Assembly (NCBI GenBank): GCA_963740085.1
Contig: CAVUCU010000007.1
Coordinates: 217,618 to 281,617 of the forward strand
DNA from: Nitrospirota bacterium
GTDB lineage: Bacteria; Nitrospirota; UBA9217
Direction: 5' to 3'
Length of the DNA: 64,000 nt
Shown: in pieces, positions 49,408-57,843 of the stretch
Position numbering within the stretch: position 1 is the first letter of the stretch
Layout: every line of letters starts with the position of its first letter
Position numbers and translations under genes: made by a program
Notes under the pieces: generated by a model
Seen by the model: the letters and a program-made list of their open reading frames with translations, nothing else
Database searches by the model: none
What the model was told of the DNA's origin: nothing

Positions 49408-50259
49408 TTACAAGAACTCCTTAAGCGTTACCTCGATCTTCTTCATGTCAAAGGCCTGATGCACGAGAGGTTTCTCTTTGATCATCGGAACGCGCTCTTC
49501 AAATGTGGGCCGGTCATTGCGATAGATGACGCCGATGGGAATACGGTCACCCCACTCGAGCGCCCTTGCGAATGCGGTCTTTCGGTCTTCGGGGTCATAC
49601 CCGGGCTCGATATGATAAACACGCTGTTTGTACCAGTCATAGGTGTTCACCTTGTTGAAGGAAACGCAGGGTTGAAGAATATCGAGGAGGGCAAACCCTT
49701 CGTGCATGATCGCTTCCTTCATGAGATCTTTAAGATGGTCCAGATCGCCTGCATACCCGCGCGCTGCAAATCCGCAGTCAAGCGCAACTGCGAGGGCCAT
49801 GGGGTTGAACTGTTCCGAGAGCACGCCGAAGGGCATGTTCCTGGTCACCACCCCTTCGCCCGTTGTGGGAGACGCCTGCCCCTTGGTCAGGCCGTAGACC
49901 TGGTTGTCGTGCACGAACAGTTTCACATTTATGTTCCTTCGCATGGCGGCCAGAAGATGGTTGCCTCCTTCGCCGTAGCAGTCGCCGTCGCCGGTGGTGA
50001 CGATCACCGGCATCTCGTGGTTCGCAAGCCTGATGCCCGTGGCAACCGGAAGGGCCCTGCCGTGAAGGCCGTTATAAGTATTGCACCTCGTGTAGTGGGG
50101 GAACTTCGCGGCCTGCCCGATACCGGAGACGATCGTGAACTGATGCGGCTCCCAGTTGAGTTCCACCATCGTGTCCTTGAACGCCTTCATGATCGCGAAA
50201 TTGCCGCATCCCGGACACCAGGCCGGGACCTGTCCTCTATACGTTTCTAAGGTGGCCAT
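49408..50259 (-). CDS. 2-oxoacid:ferredoxin oxidoreductase beta subunit
   Basis: WCPGCG, GDGD TPP motif, YGLTKGQASPT and QPCVSFN. Confidence 0.95.
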   Translation of the reverse strand: MATLETYRGQVPAWCPGCGNFAIMKAFKDTMVELNWEPHQFTIVSGIGQAAKFPHYTRCNTYNGLHGRALPVATGIRLANHEMPVIVTTGDGDCYGEGGNHLLAAMRRNINVKLFVHDNQVYGLTKGQASPTTGEGVVTRNMPFGVLSEQFNPMALAVALDCGFAARGYAGDLDHLKDLMKEAIMHEGFALLDILQPCVSFNKVNTYDWYKQRVYHIEPGYDPEDRKTAFARALEWGDRIPIGVIYRNDRPTFEERVPMIKEKPLVHQAFDMKKIEVTLKEFL

Positions 50260-51967
50260 TGATCTCTCCTGTCAATTCTTCCACGGTGAACGGCCGGCCG
50301 TCATATTTATGGACCTGCGCGTTGAACTCAAACCCTGTCTCGCTGCGCAGAAGACGGGCGAACTGTCCGCTCGCATTGTTCTCGATGCAGAGGGAAAGCC
50401 TTGCGTTCTGAAGCAACCGGACGTAATCAAAACGCTCCCGGTGCGGAAGCGGGAAAACCTCGCTGAAGTGAAGCATGGCGATGCTGGTGGATTTTGCGAG
50501 TTCGTCAACAACCTCCTTCATCACCCCGTACGTGGAACCCCAGCCTGTCAGCACAACCCGCGGGTCATGGTCGCCGTAGAGGAACGGTGGCGCGATCTCC
50601 TGCCTGAGGAGAGGCATTTTTTTGAGCAGCCGCTTTTCCACCATTTTGATCCTCGTCGCGGCATCCTCGATGATGTGGCCGTCCTCATCGTGCTCATCGC
50701 TGTCCGTCACGACAAGATGCTTTGCATCCCCGGGCACGCCGAGAGGGGAAATCCCGGTCTCGGTCAAGGCATACCGCTGGTAACCCGCTAATTTCTTGAA
50801 TGCACCTTCCCGCACGCGATAATCCACATATCTGATCTTGCCGGTATCAAATCCCCCGAAAGTCCACTCGGTGTCCGACAGGTAGGTATCGAACAGGATA
50901 AAAACAGGCACTTGATACTTTTCCGCAAGGTCGAACGCCTTGTTCGTGAGATAAAACGCCTCGCGGGGCGATCCCGGCGCAAATACAACGCGGGGAAATT
51001 CCCCGTGTCCGGCGGAGACGATGAACTGGAGATCGCCCTGCTCGGTCCTTGTCGGGAGCCCCGTTGCGGGACCCGGCCGCTGGCCCATGGCGATCACGAT
51101 TGGCGTCTCGGTCATTGCCGCCAGCGAGAGTCCCTCGACCATGAGCGCAAATCCGCCGCCCGAGGTCCCGGTCATGGCCCGGACACCGGCAAAGGATGCC
51201 CCGAGTGCCATGTTGATTGCCGCGATCTCGTCCTCGGCCTGTTCCACGACAACACCGTATTCCTTTTCCTTGGTCGCGAGATAGTTCATGATGCCTGTCG
51301 ACGGCGTCATGGGATACGCCGAGTAGAACTTGCACCCCGACGCCAACGCACCGAGGGCGATGGACTCGACGCCTCCCACGAGCATCAGGGGTTTTGCCGA
51401 TCCATCAGGAAGAAGGGAGAAGTTGCACTTGGGACAGCCGTTGAATGAGCGGTCATAGCCTGCCATGGCCGCGTTCTTGTTCGCGCCGACGACCTTCTCG
51501 CCCTTTTTCGCAAAGGTTGCGGCAAGGAGGTCCATCAGGATATCGAGGTCCATCCCCAGTATGCCGAGGACCGCTCCCGTTGCCACGGCGTTCGCCATGA
51601 TCCTGTCGCCGCCGTGCTCCATTGCAAGCTTCACAAAAGGGATGTCGAGGAACGCCGGCTTATCGTGCGTTTCCTTGAGCGTTTCAGAATCGTAGATGAT
51701 CTTGCCGCGGGAGGTAAGCTCCCGTTCGTGCAGCTGTATGCTCTCCTTGTCCAGTGCAACAAGAATGTCGATCGCATCCCTGGGCGCTGAAACCGGCCTG
51801 TCCGAAAACCGTATCTGGTAGAAATTATGCCCGCCGCGGATCCGCGACTCATAATCCTGATTCGTGAAGACGTGGTATCCGGCACGGGCAAAAGTATGTC
51901 CCAGGGTATCACCGATCGTCTGGATGCCCTGCCCGGCCTCACCGCCGATCTTGACGGAATAGTCCAT
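50237..51967 (-). CDS. 2-oxoacid:acceptor oxidoreductase alpha subunit (gamma-alpha fusion)
   Basis: GGEAGQG, RIRGGHN, YPMTPST, QAEDEIAA and RPGPATGLPT motifs. Confidence 0.95.
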   Translation of the reverse strand: MDYSVKIGGEAGQGIQTIGDTLGHTFARAGYHVFTNQDYESRIRGGHNFYQIRFSDRPVSAPRDAIDILVALDKESIQLHERELTSRGKIIYDSETLKETHDKPAFLDIPFVKLAMEHGGDRIMANAVATGAVLGILGMDLDILMDLLAATFAKKGEKVVGANKNAAMAGYDRSFNGCPKCNFSLLPDGSAKPLMLVGGVESIALGALASGCKFYSAYPMTPSTGIMNYLATKEKEYGVVVEQAEDEIAAINMALGASFAGVRAMTGTSGGGFALMVEGLSLAAMTETPIVIAMGQRPGPATGLPTRTEQGDLQFIVSAGHGEFPRVVFAPGSPREAFYLTNKAFDLAEKYQVPVFILFDTYLSDTEWTFGGFDTGKIRYVDYRVREGAFKKLAGYQRYALTETGISPLGVPGDAKHLVVTDSDEHDEDGHIIEDAATRIKMVEKRLLKKMPLLRQEIAPPFLYGDHDPRVVLTGWGSTYGVMKEVVDELAKSTSIAMLHFSEVFPLPHRERFDYVRLLQNARLSLCIENNASGQFARLLRSETGFEFNAQVHKYDGRPFTVEELTGEINGHLRNV

Positions 51968-52168
51968 AGTTCCTCTTTCAGTAACTGGATTGATACGGAG
52001 TTATGAGAGAATAAAATCCTTCACCGTGAAAAAATGCAACGGTTTTGACAAGCAACAAGATCAACAGGATTAAATGATATAAAGAAGAATGAAATCTGAT
52101 CGTATCGGGCGCTATCCTGTCGATCCTGTCAGGGACTGGGATTCCAGCTTGGGTGAAAGACCGGACCT

Positions 52169-52498
52169 TTACCTGATGTCTTCTATCGTGATCACACCGG
52201 ATCCGAGGAGTCGGGCAAGAAGCACAAATCCTCCACAGGGCGGTGCTGCCCGGTCCTGCATAAAATCGCAGTCATGTTCATGAAAATCACAGACAATGCA
52301 CAGGGTTTTCACTAACCTGTCTGCCAGAACCGGGTTTGATTCGCCACTCTTGCATTCAAGGACAAGACTTTTCCCTTGGCGCAATAATCGCTCCACGACC
52401 GTATACCCTTTGCATGCAAGTTCTTCGTTTTTCCCGGGCTTATAGTAGGAACAGAATTTTAAACAAAGTGTTTGTTCCAGCGGCAAGTTATCCGTCAT
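52169..52498 (-). CDS. Small Cys-rich hypothetical protein, divergent from the radical SAM gene
   Basis: CLKFCSYYKPGKNEELAC...CIVCDFHEHDCDF...PPCGG; probable metal-binding protein. Confidence 0.7.
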   Translation of the reverse strand: MTDNLPLEQTLCLKFCSYYKPGKNEELACKGYTVVERLLRQGKSLVLECKSGESNPVLADRLVKTLCIVCDFHEHDCDFMQDRAAPPCGGFVLLARLLGSGVITIEDIR

Positions 52499-52544
52499 GG
52501 GGTCTATTATAACAAAAACGGAGATGTAGTGCTATACTTACGCT

Positions 52545-53675
52545 ATGACTTACTACCTGACAAAACAGGCCGTACTGAAATGGCTCGAAGTCCCGTCTGT
52601 TTATCAGATCGCAAAGGACGAGTTATACGAGCTTGACAGCGCGTCGTTCAATTTTCTGAAAAAGTGCGCCTCACACGCCGGTTGCGTATCAAAGAACAGC
52701 GCGTTTATAGATTACTGCCGGGAGGAGGAACTGCTGTCGATGAAACAGGGTCCGGCCCGACGGCCAGTTCTCAAACAATCTCCCGTGCCCTCGCTTCGAT
52801 ATCTTGAACTCCAGATCACCGATGCCTGCAACCTCAGATGCAGGCATTGTTACATCGGCAATAACGGCAACAACGAACTGTCGGTGGATCAGGTGGCAAC
52901 GGTCCTGCGAGAATTCGAGGAGATGCAGGGTTTGCGCGTACTGATAACAGGCGGCGAGCCGCTGCTCCACAGCAAGTTCGCTGAGATCAATGAGATGCTC
53001 CCCGATTTTTTCATCAGAAAGGTCCTGTTCACGAACGGTCTGCTCCTTAAAAAAGAAGACTTGCAAACGCTCAAGGTTGACGAGATACAGGTGAGCCTCG
53101 ATGGACTTGAAGCCGCCCACGACAAGATCCGGGGAAGCGGGACGTTCAAACGCTCCCTGGAGGCGATGAAACACGCACTTGACGCGGGCTTTGATGTATC
53201 GGTGTCAACCATGGTACATAAGTTCAATAGAGCGGACTTCGACGGCATGGAACAGCTTTTCAAGAAGATGGGGATCAAGGATTGGACCGTGGATGTTCCG
53301 TGCATGACCGGAAGGCTGAAGGAAAATGAAGAGTTTTGTGTCAGCCCCGAGGAAAGCGGAAAATATCTTGGCTACGGTTACGGAAACGGGCTCCATTCGT
53401 CCACACAGGGATACGGCTGCGGCCTCCATCTCATGGCGGTTATGGCGGATGGGGGCATTGCTAAATGCTCATTTTACCGGGACCAACCCGTGGGCGCCGT
53501 GGACCAGGGACTGAAAACAGCCTGGAGCAAAATTCAACCCGTCAGACTTAAGGACTTGGAGTGTGACTGCGAGTATCTTGAAGTGTGCCGGGGAGGATGC
53601 AGGTACCGGGCGGAGCTTCTCGAGGGGAAAAGCGGAAAAGACCTTTACCGGTGCATGCTCTATGGTATAATATGA
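52545..53675 (+). CDS. Radical SAM/SPASM protein with an N-terminal extension (candidate peptide maturase)
   Basis: CNLRCRHC, ITGGEP and VSLDG motifs; SPASM-type Cys pattern CGLH...KCSF...CDCEYLEVCRGGC...C; about 75 aa N-terminal extension. Confidence 0.9.
   Translation: MTYYLTKQAVLKWLEVPSVYQIAKDELYELDSASFNFLKKCASHAGCVSKNSAFIDYCREEELLSMKQGPARRPVLKQSPVPSLRYLELQITDACNLRCRHCYIGNNGNNELSVDQVATVLREFEEMQGLRVLITGGEPLLHSKFAEINEMLPDFFIRKVLFTNGLLLKKEDLQTLKVDEIQVSLDGLEAAHDKIRGSGTFKRSLEAMKHALDAGFDVSVSTMVHKFNRADFDGMEQLFKKMGIKDWTVDVPCMTGRLKENEEFCVSPEESGKYLGYGYGNGLHSSTQGYGCGLHLMAVMADGGIAKCSFYRDQPVGAVDQGLKTAWSKIQPVRLKDLECDCEYLEVCRGGCRYRAELLEGKSGKDLYRCMLYGII
53644..53671 (+). promoter_or_regulatory. Promoter at the 3' end of the rSAM gene, facing the peptide ORF
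   Basis: TTTACC-N16-TATAAT with an extended -10 (TGG-TATAAT). Confidence 0.55.
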
Positions 53676-53768
53676 ACAGTAGTAGGCTCGCACAGAGTTC
53701 GTAGCGTTCTGAATAAAAGAGGTACTTCTCCTCATCAAACCATGTTATCAGGAAAGGAGGTTTTTCCA

Positions 53769-53831
53769 ATGACCATTAAAAAGGTAACAAAAAAAATGGC
53801 GGTCACTTGCAAGTGTAAAAGCTCCTGCTAA
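53769..53831 (+). CDS. 20-aa Cys-rich peptide, candidate RiPP precursor (not in the ORF track)
   Basis: AAAGGAGG 8 nt before the ATG; MTIKKVTKKMAVTCKCKSSC*; followed by a terminator. Confidence 0.72.
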   Translation: MTIKKVTKKMAVTCKCKSSC

Positions 53832-53862
53832 CTTCGACAAGGTCCGCCCAAAATAAAGATAA

Positions 53863-53895
53863 GCCCGGCGCTCCCTGCCGGGCGTTTTATTTTTT
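53863..53895. terminator. Intrinsic terminator, probably bidirectional (peptide and ychF)
   Basis: GCCCGGC-loop-GCCGGGC followed by TTTTATTTTTT and preceded by an A-rich run. Confidence 0.8.
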
Positions 53896-53904
53896 GTCAC
53901 CCCA

Positions 53905-54999
53905 TCACACGTTAAACCGAAAGAGCATGATGTCCCCGTCCTTGACCACGTAGTCCTTGCCTTCGGAACGAAGCAGGCCCGCCTCTTTCACGGCCTTCTC
54001 AGTGCCAAGCTTCATCAGATCATCGAAATGGAATACCTCTGCGCGAATGAAGCCCTTTTCAAAATCCGAGTGGATCTTCCCCGCGGCCTGCGGCGCCTTG
54101 GTGCCCTTGGTAATGGTCCATGCCCGCACTTCTTTCTCGCCTGCGGTAAGGTAGGTGATGAGACCAAGGAGCTCGTAGCCCGCCCGGATCATGCGATCGA
54201 GGCCTGATTCCTTGAGCCCCATCCCCGCCAGATATTCCATTCGTTCTTCCGTGGGAAGCTGGGCTATCTCTCCCTCCACCTGTCCCGAAATGACGACGAC
54301 CCGGGCATCTTCCCCGGCGGCTATCTTCCTGACCGCATCCACAAGCGGGTTCGGCTTGTCCACCATGTCTTCCGCCACGTTCGCCACATAGAGCACCGGC
54401 TTGGCGGACAACAGGGCGTAGCTCTTGAGCCATAGGGTCTCTTCCTCGGAATGGGTCGCACGGCGGACAGGCTCACCCCTGGCAAGCATGTCCTTGAGCC
54501 GCCGCATGAACTCCACTTCTTCCAGGGCCTTTCGGTCCGCGGTCCTGGCCATCTTCTCGGCCTTGTACAGCCGCTTCTCGATCGCATCGAGGTCCGCAAG
54601 CATGAGCTCCGCCTCGATCACCTCGATATCCTCCCGGGGATCTACCTTCCCGGCCACGTGAATGACATTCGGGTCTTCGAAGCAGCGCACCACATGCGCG
54701 ATGGCGTCCACCTCTCGGATGTTGGCGAGGAACTTGTTGCCCAGCCCTTCGCCCTGCGCCGCTCCTTTCACGAGGCCGGCAATGTCCACGAATTCCATGC
54801 TCGTGGGCGTTCTTTTTTTCGGTTTGTAGATCTCGACAAGCTTGTCGATCCGCTCATCGGGCATGTCCACCACGCCGACGTTCGGATCGATGGTGGTGAA
54901 GGGATAGTTCGAGGCCTGAGCGCCCGCAGAGGTGAGTGCGTTGAAGATGGTCGACTTGCCCACGTTCGGCAGGCCGACGATGCCGCAATTGAAACCCAT
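53905..54999 (-). CDS. ychF: Redox-regulated ATPase YchF
   Basis: [31 protein letters not shown] and a TGS domain. Confidence 0.98.
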
Positions 55000-56883: not shown

Positions 56884-57843
56884 TTATACGAACAACGAGC
56901 TGAGCGATGTTTCCTCGTGGATCCTCGTGACGGCATCGGCAAGAAGCTGCGCAACAGAAAGAACCGTCAACTTCTTGCATTCCAGCTGTTTGGTGTCCGG
57001 GGCGATCGTATTCGTCGCGATCAGCTCATCGAGCGAAGATTCATTGATGCGTTTGATCGCCGGGCCCGAGAGCACTGCGTGCGAACAGGCCGCACTGATC
57101 GTGCCCGCCCCGTTCGCCTTGAGCGCGGCCGCGCCTTCGGTCAGCGTTCCGGCGGTGTCCACCATGTCGTCCAGCAGCAGGCAGTCGTGCCCTTTGACAT
57201 CGCCGATAATGTGCATGACCTGCGCCTCGTTCGGTTTGTCCCGCCGCTTGTCGATGATCGCAAGCGCCGCATTGAGCCGCTTGGCGAACGCCCGCGCCCG
57301 TTCCACGCCGCCGGCGTCCGGCGAAACAACGGTCAGGTTGGTGAACTTCTTCGACCGGAGATACTCGAGGAGCACCGGTGCGGCAAACAGATTGTCCACC
57401 GGGATATTGAAGAACCCCTGTATCTGGCCCGCATGCAGGTCCACCGTAAGGACCCGGTTCGCGCCCGCGGTCGTGATCAGGTCGGCCACAAGCTTGGACG
57501 TAATGGGGACGCGGGGCTGCACCTTCCGGTCCTGCCGGCTGTACCCGTAATAGGGAAGCACCGCCGTGATGCGGGTCGCCGACGCCCGCTTGAGCGCATC
57601 GATCATGATCAGCAACTCCATGAGATTCCGGTTCACCGGGCTCCCCGTCGGCTGCACGACGAAAACATCCATGCCCCGCACGTTGTCCACGATCTGGACG
57701 TTGATCTCTCCGTCGCTGAAACGGCCTACCAGCGCGTTCCCGAGCGGGATGCCCATCTTCTGGCAAATTTCCTTTGCAAGGGCCGGATTTGCGTTTCCCG
57801 AAAAAATCTTTATTTCCCGTGATCTCGCCTTCACTTCATTCAT
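56884..57843 (-). CDS. prs: Ribose-phosphate pyrophosphokinase
   Basis: [31 protein letters not shown] and DDMVDTAGT motifs. Confidence 0.99.

Follow-up and report, generated by a model that had tools for sequence, protein, structure and literature searches.

The window, a stretch of 64,000 nucleotides (nt) of DNA from a Nitrospirota bacterium, encodes a radical S-adenosylmethionine (SAM) enzyme (hereafter rSAM), a 20-residue peptide that ends in a Cys-rich motif, and a small Cys-rich protein (the Cys protein). We consider it probable that these three form a maturation system of enzyme, substrate and partner. That the chemistry is specifically thioether formation is a narrower claim, which we hold tentatively and give slightly less than even weight. 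The locus was brought to attention by an earlier reading of the window (the original prediction), which proposed a new system for a ribosomally synthesised and post-translationally modified peptide (RiPP). Every detail that it gave of the layout is present in the window, including the coordinates, the spacing of the ribosome-binding site, the promoter-like and terminator-like sites, and the divergent 109-residue open reading frame (ORF). The features at the centre of the analysis are as follows.

52545-53675, plus strand: rSAM gene, 376 residues (from the ORF listing; region 51600-54200 was read)
52545-52805, plus strand: RiPP recognition element (RRE)-like domain and linker, rSAM residues 1-87 (from a fold model)
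rSAM modules in residue order: RRE-like domain, approximately 1-66; linker to approximately 85; radical SAM core; C-terminal SPASM-type region with seven Cys
53769-53831, plus strand: peptide gene, MTIKKVTKKMAVTCKCKSSC, 20 residues and stop codon, starting 93 nt past the rSAM stop
53753-53760, plus strand: Shine-Dalgarno sequence AAAGGAGG, 8 nt ahead of the peptide ATG (read from the sequence)
52169-52498, minus strand: Cys protein, 109 residues with eight Cys, head-to-head with the rSAM gene and with 46 nt between the two starts

Conservation of the peptide gene

The peptide has a Lys-rich N-terminal half and terminates in an invariant C14-K-C16-x-x-S/T19-C20, with the stop codon placed straight after the last Cys. 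Homologues of the rSAM were found in 27 of 41 related genomes. An ORF ending TCKCK[S/G]SC lies directly downstream of the rSAM gene in 22 of the 28 loci that were fetched, with rSAM identity down to 46%. Three loci have no downstream peptide ORF (L015, L021, L022), and three have little or no downstream DNA (L025, L026, L028). The original prediction had expected a small Cys-containing ORF beside orthologues of the rSAM, and this is what we see, both in these Nitrospirota loci and, as described below, in metagenome-assembled genomes (MAGs) labelled Thermodesulfobacteriota and in Archaeoglobi.

An alignment of 24 peptide genes was used to examine how the ORF varies. Non-majority bases occur 45, 40 and 172 times at codon positions 1, 2 and 3, respectively. 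Pairwise codon differences amount to 1873 synonymous versus 1125 non-synonymous changes over the whole ORF, and to 763 versus 65 over the last eight codons. A GGAGG-type site stands at the same distance before the ORF in all 24 copies, and a GC-rich hairpin with a T-run follows the gene in many of them, as judged by eye with no formal count. A scan of positions 51900-54000 against Rfam at E ≤ 1 matched no family. Because of the third-position variation, the synonymous excess, the universal GGAGG site and the lack of an Rfam match, we read the ORF, on comparative sequence grounds, as a protein-coding gene under strong purifying selection and not as an RNA element. Across all loci obtained there are 130 distinct peptide variants, each of 19 or 20 residues. 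The peptide matches no family in Pfam or NCBIfam, in keeping with the original view that the precursor is not one of any named family.

Co-occurrence of the components in Nitrospirota

The phylum was sampled with 401 genomes. The rSAM was detected in 162 of these, and the DNA pattern TGYAARTGYAARN6TGYTRR, representing the peptide, in 160; a reversed control pattern was seen in three. In the raw table, 154 genomes have both, eight have the rSAM only, six have the pattern only and 233 have neither. Two of the pattern-only matches end in TGG and are due to chance, and two genomes first scored as having the rSAM only (G315 and G373) carry the K17H variant MTIKKITKKKALTCKCHSSC. After correction, the rSAM and the peptide occur together in 156 genomes, the rSAM alone in six and the peptide alone in four.

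The genomes with only the rSAM include one where it sits at a contig edge (G034), two that are 63-65% complete (G058 and G257) and one with a weaker rSAM match (G124). G009 and G013, both near-complete, are the only good genomes that have an intact rSAM but not the peptide, even when up to two mismatches to the pattern are allowed, and they also lack the Cys protein. Their rSAM orthologues (G009:C199:5814-6929, locus L015; G013:C12:486379-487503, locus L021) are intact at 61-63% identity, and may be decaying or re-purposed.

Whole families are without the rSAM (f9, 0/76; f10, 0/28; f17, 0/40). Several other families keep both the peptide and the rSAM although the two genes are unlinked, and in single-contig genomes of the genus g48 they lie approximately 145-675 kb apart. 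The unlinked peptide genes have no constant alternative neighbour. Overall, the three-gene set is found in approximately 40% of the Nitrospirota sample. The gene dsrA is present in 202 of the 401 genomes, and the family tallies place the trio almost only inside dsrA-bearing families. Several dsrA families are without the trio, for example f27 (dsrA in 9/9, rSAM in 0/9), and three genomes have the rSAM with no dsrA match (G019, G027, G030).

Distribution beyond the phylum

When one genome per species was scanned with ACNTGYAARTGYAARNNNTCNTGYTRR, at least 120 stretches matched. Among the 80 matches listed, 78 are genuine peptide ORFs of 19-20 residues and two are chance hits (in Cytophagales and Acetatifactor). 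For 55 of these 78 genuine peptide loci, the DNA that was fetched also encodes an rSAM homologue. Most records among the matches listed are Nitrospirota or Thermodesulfovibrionia MAGs, and the 19-residue variant of the unlinked families is also seen there in records titled Thermodesulfovibrio sp. The same listed matches include archaea (an Archaeoglobaceae MAG, Archaeoglobus sp. JdFR-22 and an 'uncultured archaeon') as well as MAGs labelled Thermodesulfobacteriota, Deltaproteobacteria, Proteobacteria (with two copies) and Chloroflexota.

A class sample of 71 genomes around Archaeoglobus contains the peptide pattern in four, and these are exactly the genomes with an rSAM at least 62% identical to that of Archaeoglobus. 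In all four of these Archaeoglobi, which have the CKCK form, the peptide gene lies approximately 200 nt upstream of the rSAM gene. Eighteen further genomes of the class sample have an rSAM that is 40-47% identical to the Archaeoglobus query. Ten of them were fetched; their rSAM is 35-38% identical to the enzyme in the window, and nine of the ten have a variant peptide immediately upstream. The archaeal variants include MKVKKVEKRVVGICKCNVSC, MKVSKVERRDTGICKCGDSC and MRVKKVEGRKRRICKCASTC, and one form has an extra Ala after the last Cys. Gene order in the archaea runs from the peptide through a small Cys protein to the rSAM, the reverse of the bacterial order, and this is evidence of linkage that is independent of bacterial synteny. 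Over the whole family, peptides of 19-21 residues share a basic start, M-x-[IV]-x-K-[VI], and a C-terminal core, C-K-C-x-x-[S/T]-C.

The Cys protein as a third component

The 109-residue protein comprises two tandem CxxC...C domains of approximately 42 residues (domain 1 at approximately 52337-52465 and domain 2 at approximately 52172-52300). By tblastn, its head-to-head arrangement with the rSAM recurs in 21 of 28 loci; in more distant families it is not beside the rSAM. In the archaea, all 13 loci examined have a small ORF between the peptide and the rSAM, with the motif I-C-x-x-C-D-F-Y-K...L-E-C-x-A-F-K-x-L...G-K-x-T-x-E-E. A hidden Markov model (HMM) built from 11 archaeal ORFs only was found to match the Cys protein of the window twice in tandem (residues 25-54, E = 1.7e-3, and residues 77-120, E = 1.5e-2, in segment numbering). 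The double match is modest per hit but recurs across most double-domain loci. The HMM also finds single-domain ORFs, at E values of 1e-15 to 1e-20, abutting the rSAM start in three Desulfobacterota-labelled loci (L111, L122 and L183), and equally placed single-domain ORFs of this strength in L034-L036, which are distant Nitrospirota loci. When archaeal and bacterial domains are aligned jointly, three Cys are invariant in the arrangement CxxC...C.

The Cys domain was detected in 154 of the 401 Nitrospirota genomes, with family tallies that mirror those of the rSAM and the peptide. All three components are present in 145 genomes and none in 232. The 24 mixed genomes have the rSAM with the peptide (11), the rSAM with the Cys domain (4), the peptide with the Cys domain (2), the rSAM alone (2), a peptide-like ORF alone (2) or the Cys domain alone (3). 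The original prediction had suspected that the divergently encoded Cys-rich protein was part of the system. Its linkage in archaea and Desulfobacterota, and its co-occurrence as part of a trio in Nitrospirota, lend support to that suspicion and point to the protein being a third conserved partner.

Three genomes in which the Cys protein is not next to the rSAM (G080, G036 and G169) each encode one double-domain ORF of 100-117 residues elsewhere. In two of these, which belong to two families, the start of the Cys protein gene overlaps the end of cutA (G036, L235 1166-1788; G080, L237 1166-1782; Pfam CutA1, E = 5e-39), and this neighbourhood gives a weak hint of metal handling. A search of 1.84 billion representative proteins with a Cys-domain profile gave 212 matches at E ≤ 0.001, of which 55 reach E ≤ 1e-10. 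The matching proteins form two size classes, one of 47-90 residues with a single domain and one of 103-150 residues with two. No name is attached to the Cys protein in Pfam, NCBIfam or ESM Atlas, and its public label is 'hypothetical protein'; in ESM Atlas, both Cys proteins match unnamed hypothetical clusters only. One protein of 474 residues (P0277) combines a receiver/PAS/HisKA-like N-terminus with a double Cys domain. This single case could be a sensor fusion or a gene-calling artefact, and it was not used.

The radical SAM enzyme

The Pfam model Radical_SAM (PF04055) matches rSAM residues 90-235 with an E value of 9.7e-25 and a score of 88 bits (cut-off 29.5), and this core, together with a CxxxCxxC motif at C95/C99/C102, places the enzyme in the radical SAM superfamily. 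These three Cys are invariant in an alignment of 49 homologues with 38-82% identity, and so are seven Cys in the C-terminal region (C292, C308, C340, C342, C348, C352 and C370). SPASM domains follow the pattern Cx9-15Gx4C ... CxxCx5Cx3C ... C, with 7-8 Cys that hold two auxiliary 4Fe-4S clusters. The original prediction had picked out both the CxxxCxxC motif and the SPASM-type Cys. The alignment bears out the first, and its seven C-terminal Cys follow a SPASM-like pattern in which CxxC is replaced by CxC. Close homologues of the rSAM carry the Joint Genome Institute (JGI) name 'SPASM domain' protein.

An AlphaFold2 model built from the same alignment has a predicted local distance difference test (pLDDT) score of 94. 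Its best folds in the Protein Data Bank (PDB) are three RiPP maturases, SkfB, SuiB and CteB. BlsE and MoaA come next, and after them anSME, ChlB and PqqE. By sequence, the best match is SkfB (E = 6e-17), with CteB at 1.6e-6, both confined to the radical SAM core. The NCBIfam collection gave weak matches to 83 models, again in the core only. The best of them reached 96 bits against cut-offs of 265-725 and none passes, so that the rSAM lies below the cut-offs of WgkB, ScmE/F, GeoRSP, MftC, SkfB, StsB, SbtM and other maturase models.

We also considered, and rejected, an identity as one of the heme enzymes AhbD, AhbC or NirJ, for which the rSAM scores 86.9-96.3 bits, in the core only, against cut-offs of 500-650. 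A true AhbD is encoded elsewhere in the same genome and scores 526 bits (cut-off 500), compared to 90 bits for the rSAM under study. The original prediction had named a grouping with NirJ/Ahb as a threat to its reading, and these scores set the rSAM well apart from that group.

The N-terminal domain

The fold of an RRE resembles a winged helix, is built from three strands and three helices, and takes up a leader peptide as an extra strand. Such a domain had been proposed for the N-terminal extension of the rSAM. We relied on fold searches to assess this because the sequence models failed: Pfam gave little, and a PDB profile search with the domain returned no meaningful match. Folded alone, residues 1-87 gave a model with a pLDDT of 90, containing four short strands and two helices. 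The domain includes a conserved acidic strand, D25-E-L-Y-E-L-D31. The 49 homologues show no change at D25, L27 or E61 and very little at Y28, E29, F37, F54 and C58.

The ten best Foldseek matches to residues 1-87 come without exception from RRE proteins that bind leaders, namely TbiB1, SuiB (its N-terminus), lasso B1 and MccB. The top match is leader-bound TbiB1 (E = 0.047, probability 0.99), and LynD and ThcOx appear lower in the list. A VIA-align search of 48,161 representative chains gave Z scores of 6.6 for TigE, 6.5 for TbiB1 (root-mean-square deviation of 2.2 over 63 residues), 6.0 for lasso B1 and 5.6 for MibB, followed by PqqD (5.1), ThcOx (5.0), the PbtF RRE (4.5), SuiB (4.5), MccB (4.3) and CteB (3.4). 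The matches are middling but the family to which they belong is consistent, running through TbiB1, lasso B1, PqqD, SuiB, MccB, LynD and PbtF, and we accept on the strength of the fold model that the extension has an RRE fold, as the original prediction had it.

Predicted complex of rSAM and peptide

The complex was predicted from the rSAM alignment and the peptide alignment, together with SAM and three 4Fe-4S clusters. The interaction prediction score from aligned errors (ipSAE) was 0.85, 0.87 and 0.92 in three runs, and the best of three controls reached 0.02. The peptide has a pLDDT of 62 or more in the complex, and 54% or more of the contacts are shared between runs. The modelling favours the proposal that the peptide is the substrate of the rSAM (0.85-0.92, against 0.02 for the best control).

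The contacts with the lowest error are those of peptide residues 2-6, which meet enzyme strand 26-31 and residues 34, 37, 54, 57, 58 and 61. The remainder of the peptide is predicted to contact barrel strands 85-88, 131-135, 160-162, 182-184, 219-223 and 246-250, as well as Y103, and to touch the region of C292-296, 308-310, 349 and 352. The predicted binding is of the canonical RRE mode, through beta3 and a helix, with the acidic strand facing the Lys-rich leader. In the predicted pose, the Cys core lies beside the first auxiliary cluster and the site where SAM sits.

Neighbouring genes and regulatory features

The remaining features around the locus are listed here.

53644-53671, plus strand: promoter-like site, TTTACC-16-(TG)TATAAT, within the 3' end of the rSAM gene (consensus scan)
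53863-53893, plus strand: terminator-like feature 3' of the peptide gene, with a hairpin (8 pairs of which 7 are G-C) and T-run at 53863-53883
50237-51967 and 49408-50259, minus strand: 2-oxoacid:ferredoxin oxidoreductase, fused gamma/alpha subunit (576 residues) and beta subunit (283 residues)
Downstream of the peptide gene, convergent: ychF (Pfam)

The promoter-like site has 10 of 12 consensus matches and an extended -10 TG, and by its consensus match could act as a separate promoter for a peptide transcript. The terminator-like hairpin is bidirectional in form, and ychF converges on it. The scanned region contains four promoter-like and five terminator-like sites, versus means of 1.7 and 2.2 in shuffled sequence, and consensus matches of this kind are therefore weak on their own. 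The ORFs past ychF, read from their translations alone, are presumably pth, the gene for ribosomal protein L25, and prs (56884-57843). There is no attenuation target in the window because the next gene, ychF, converges. A role of the small ORF as a leader-peptide attenuator was rejected on this ground, and also because its amino acids are conserved and the peptide is found in archaea.

The oxidoreductase alpha gene lies beyond the Cys protein gene in 20 of 28 related loci (tblastn), and in the window it is on the same strand and directly downstream. In this family the Cys protein may be co-transcribed with the 2-oxoacid:ferredoxin oxidoreductase genes. In genus g48 (L060, L061, L066) and in L145, the peptide gene heads a string of genes for a TPR protein, ispE and prs. 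The position of the peptide gene near prs both here and in the window suggests an old insertion site beside a ychF-pth-L25-prs-ispE block.

Extra copies of the peptide gene were seen in a few places. Two genomes (G403, on C2, C4 and C6; G470, on C11 and C17) have two to three copies, one adjoining the rSAM gene and the others elsewhere. On a 'Proteobacteria' MAG contig (L090), two identical copies (230-256 and 1673-1699) stand on either side of a methyltransferase-like ORF. In the two Desulfobacterota-labelled loci whose ORFs were read (L111, 5923-6837; L122, 213-1127), an ATP-grasp-like ORF of 304 residues (ATP-grasp_3, E = 2e-6, above cut-off) comes after the peptide gene in the same orientation, and it may encode a lineage-specific extra tailoring enzyme.

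Proposed mechanism

From these data we infer how translation, binding and chemistry might proceed, and which roles the Cys protein and the product might have. The 20-residue peptide would be translated from its own ribosome-binding site, and its Lys-rich residues 2-9 would add a beta-strand to the fused RRE, held there by the helices and the acidic beta3. The core T-C-K-C-x-x-S/T-C-COOH would enter the radical SAM barrel near the SPASM auxiliary clusters, where the rSAM would cleave SAM reductively, take a hydrogen atom from the core and modify it. The most likely modification would be one or more intramolecular thioethers of the sactionine or ranthionine type, joining the sulfur of a Cys to a carbon in a neighbouring residue and using the site of auxiliary cluster I, for which three conserved Cys ligands are evident. 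The Cys protein would be an obligate third partner, perhaps as a metal- or cluster-binding chaperone, as an acceptor, or as a user of the modified peptide. The product would most likely act inside the cell and not as a secreted antibiotic, perhaps as a cofactor-like prosthetic group or a peptide with metal or redox activity. This view rests on a near-invariant, single-copy peptide of fixed length, on the lack of conserved protease, transporter or immunity genes in the flanks inspected, and on the retention of the trio when scattered.

In sactipeptides the Cys sulfur is linked to an alpha-carbon, and in ranthipeptides to a beta- or gamma-carbon. Membership of either class would agree with the architecture of the enzyme and with the Cys-rich core. 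A study of CteB describes an open site on SPASM auxiliary cluster I that is occupied by a Cys of the substrate, and auxiliary clusters that are fully ligated in anSME, SuiB and PqqE (PMC6231123). Given this open site in CteB, the seven invariant Cys of the rSAM family, and the fact that C253, a possible fourth ligand of auxiliary cluster I, is missing in several members, binding of a Cys to the cluster followed by thioether formation would be the most economical guess. Because the stop codon strictly follows the last Cys, chemistry at the C-terminus, such as oxidative decarboxylation, could also take place. Oxidative decarboxylation is the reaction performed by MftC.

A number of observations weigh against the reading of the three genes as a maturation system, or against parts of it. 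The scores behind the RRE call are middling (best Foldseek E value 0.047, VIA-align Z at most 6.6), winged-helix DNA-binding domains of the OmpR type also match near Z 3, and the Pfam model PqqD (PF05402) matches one of the 49 members, at an E value of 0.062, so the call is made by fold only. In the SPASM-type region, the central motif in the 49 homologues is CxCx5Cx3C instead of CxxCx5Cx3C, and the Pfam SPASM model has no match to the rSAM at E ≤ 0.1. C253 is present in most of the homologues, and its absence from several makes the open-cluster argument for thioether chemistry only suggestive; the sequence and model data do not separate thioether formation from other Cys chemistry. In the calibration of ipSAE, 58 of 80 solved complexes and 2 of 110 mismatched pairs passed the mark; it used other alignments and held no chain shorter than 30 residues, so that a partner of 20 residues falls outside it. 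The high score could also arise through likeness to solved RRE-leader complexes.

On the genomic side, the 401 genomes of the phylum sample are related rather than independent, and the co-occurrence tables are descriptive, with no statistical test. Eleven genomes with the rSAM and the peptide gave no Cys-domain match at E ≤ 0.001, and two to four have a peptide-like ORF without a detected rSAM. An exact look-up in a public protein collection found the 20-residue peptide absent, and likewise a longer ORF of 29 residues and the 109-residue protein. No RNA runs containing positions 52100-54000 were listed, only DNA metagenome contigs with a word share of at most 0.26.

Alternative explanations

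The evidence that ties the Cys protein to the system also raises the idea that this protein is the substrate of the rSAM, instead of or besides the peptide, with thioethers formed on it and the peptide acting as an accessory such as a metal-binding partner. Its association with the rSAM across genomes is as tight as that of the peptide (154 versus 160 of 401), and in archaeal and Desulfobacterota-labelled loci its gene lies right against the rSAM start. CrpC is reported to be a SPASM rSAM that forms crosslinks in CrpA, a Cys-rich protein encoded beside it (PMC13692751). However, it is the peptide, and not an unrelated 20-mer, that is placed on the RRE and in the barrel by the complex model (0.87 versus 0.02), and the acidic RRE strand complements the Lys-rich peptide. 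We regard this alternative as improbable, and it need not exclude the peptide as a substrate.

An RRE-rSAM-SPASM enzyme beside a short Cys-rich ORF is also the architecture of known thioether RiPP clusters, and the best folds are maturases of that kind, as would be expected of an ordinary secreted bacteriocin or signalling cluster of the sactipeptide or ranthipeptide type. This is very improbable in our estimation, as the peptide is nearly invariant over rSAM identities down to 35-46% and across two domains of life, is usually single-copy and always 19-21 residues long. The flanks that were inspected contain no conserved protease, transporter or immunity gene, their neighbours being variable housekeeping genes, and the trio is often scattered in the genome. 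Last, the small ORF could encode an unmodified metallothionein-like or ribosome-associated mini-protein, or be a regulatory leader, with its proximity to the rSAM a matter of inherited synteny. The peptide is both Lys-rich and Cys-rich, its CKCK motif resembles segments of metallothioneins, and it is followed by a terminator-like hairpin and adjoins the ychF-pth-L25-prs housekeeping block. We find this scarcely credible given that the pair of peptide and rSAM is re-formed in opposite order in Archaeoglobi, that the two are retained when unlinked, that G009 and G013 lack the Cys protein as well as the peptide, and that it is the amino-acid sequence of the peptide that is conserved, not codon content alone.

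Implications

Returning to the maturation system, a more far-reaching proposal is that the end product of the trio is a prosthetic molecule with metal or redox activity that derives from the peptide, is crosslinked or changed in some other way at Cys-Lys-Cys...Ser-Cys-COOH, is held or used by the CxxC...C protein, and serves anaerobic energy metabolism. We offer this as speculation that is more apt to fail than to hold. If true, the metabolism served would be the one common to sulfate- and sulfur-metabolising Nitrospirota, Thermodesulfobacteriota and Archaeoglobi, and the product would be a third kind of cofactor derived from a ribosomal peptide, after pyrroloquinoline quinone (PQQ) and mycofactocin, and the first Cys-based one across Bacteria and Archaea.

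Radical SAM systems of the RiPP type are mostly known for variable, secreted antibiotics, and to our knowledge only PQQ and mycofactocin show the same enzyme logic building conserved cellular cofactors. The present system is invisible in databases because the peptide gene is too short for annotation pipelines. It offers a small and readily synthesised substrate for discovering radical SAM chemistry on Cys, Lys and Ser, and a lead to an unrecognised physiological function in sulfate- and sulfur-metabolising anaerobes.

Comparison with known systems

In overall design, the system resembles CteB/CteA (thermocellin), AlbA, SkfB and PapB, in which an RRE, a radical SAM core and an auxiliary-cluster domain are combined and a short Cys-containing peptide is encoded adjacently. 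As in CteB, the leader is predicted here to form an added strand on the RRE sheet, and the seven conserved Cys of the SPASM-type region leave auxiliary cluster I with three evident ligands, as is described for CteB (PMC6231123). Unlike in the CteB/SkfB group, to which sequence likeness is limited to the radical SAM core, the precursor is a near-invariant peptide of 19-21 residues that ends at its last Cys, no cleavage or export genes were seen, there is a third component in the Cys protein, and carriers are found among both Bacteria and Archaea.

The SCIFF (six-Cys-in-forty-five) ranthipeptide system of Clostridia also pairs a highly conserved Cys-rich peptide with a single radical SAM/SPASM maturase, and is widely kept rather than hypervariable. 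In contrast to SCIFF, the peptide described here has 20 residues and three Cys, occurs in other phyla and is accompanied by an extra Cys protein, and among the NCBIfam matches listed there is no SCIFF model for either it or the rSAM. The CrpC/CrpA pair of Methanococcus voltae, reported in 2026, consists of a SPASM rSAM with an RRE that is reported to make ranthionine links on a Cys-rich protein, and it shares with our system the placing of such an enzyme beside a Cys-rich protein in anaerobic archaea (PMC13692751). The difference is that here a separate 20-residue peptide is the better-supported substrate, and any likeness of the 109-residue Cys protein to CrpA would be by description.

PqqA/PqqE/PqqD and MftA/MftC/MftB offer a further parallel, by analogy, in that a very short conserved precursor is modified at its C-terminus by an RRE-guided rSAM-SPASM enzyme. 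The PQQ and mycofactocin systems also resemble ours in having an intracellular product and vertically conserved genes, and PqqE and PqqD are among the fold matches; the mycofactocin maturase model scores 82 bits with the rSAM, at a cut-off of 265, and by the NCBIfam cut-offs the rSAM belongs to neither family. Unlike in these systems, the RRE is fused to the enzyme, there are no conserved peptidase or tailoring genes nearby, and the core is based on Cys and not on Glu/Tyr or Val/Tyr. A search of the full-text literature for the motifs and the topic, with supplements and some journals outside its scope, returned nothing on this system. In short, the RRE-dependent maturation of a peptide by an rSAM/SPASM enzyme is known in kind, whereas the near-invariant mini-precursor, its Cys partner and their spread across two domains of life are apparently undescribed.

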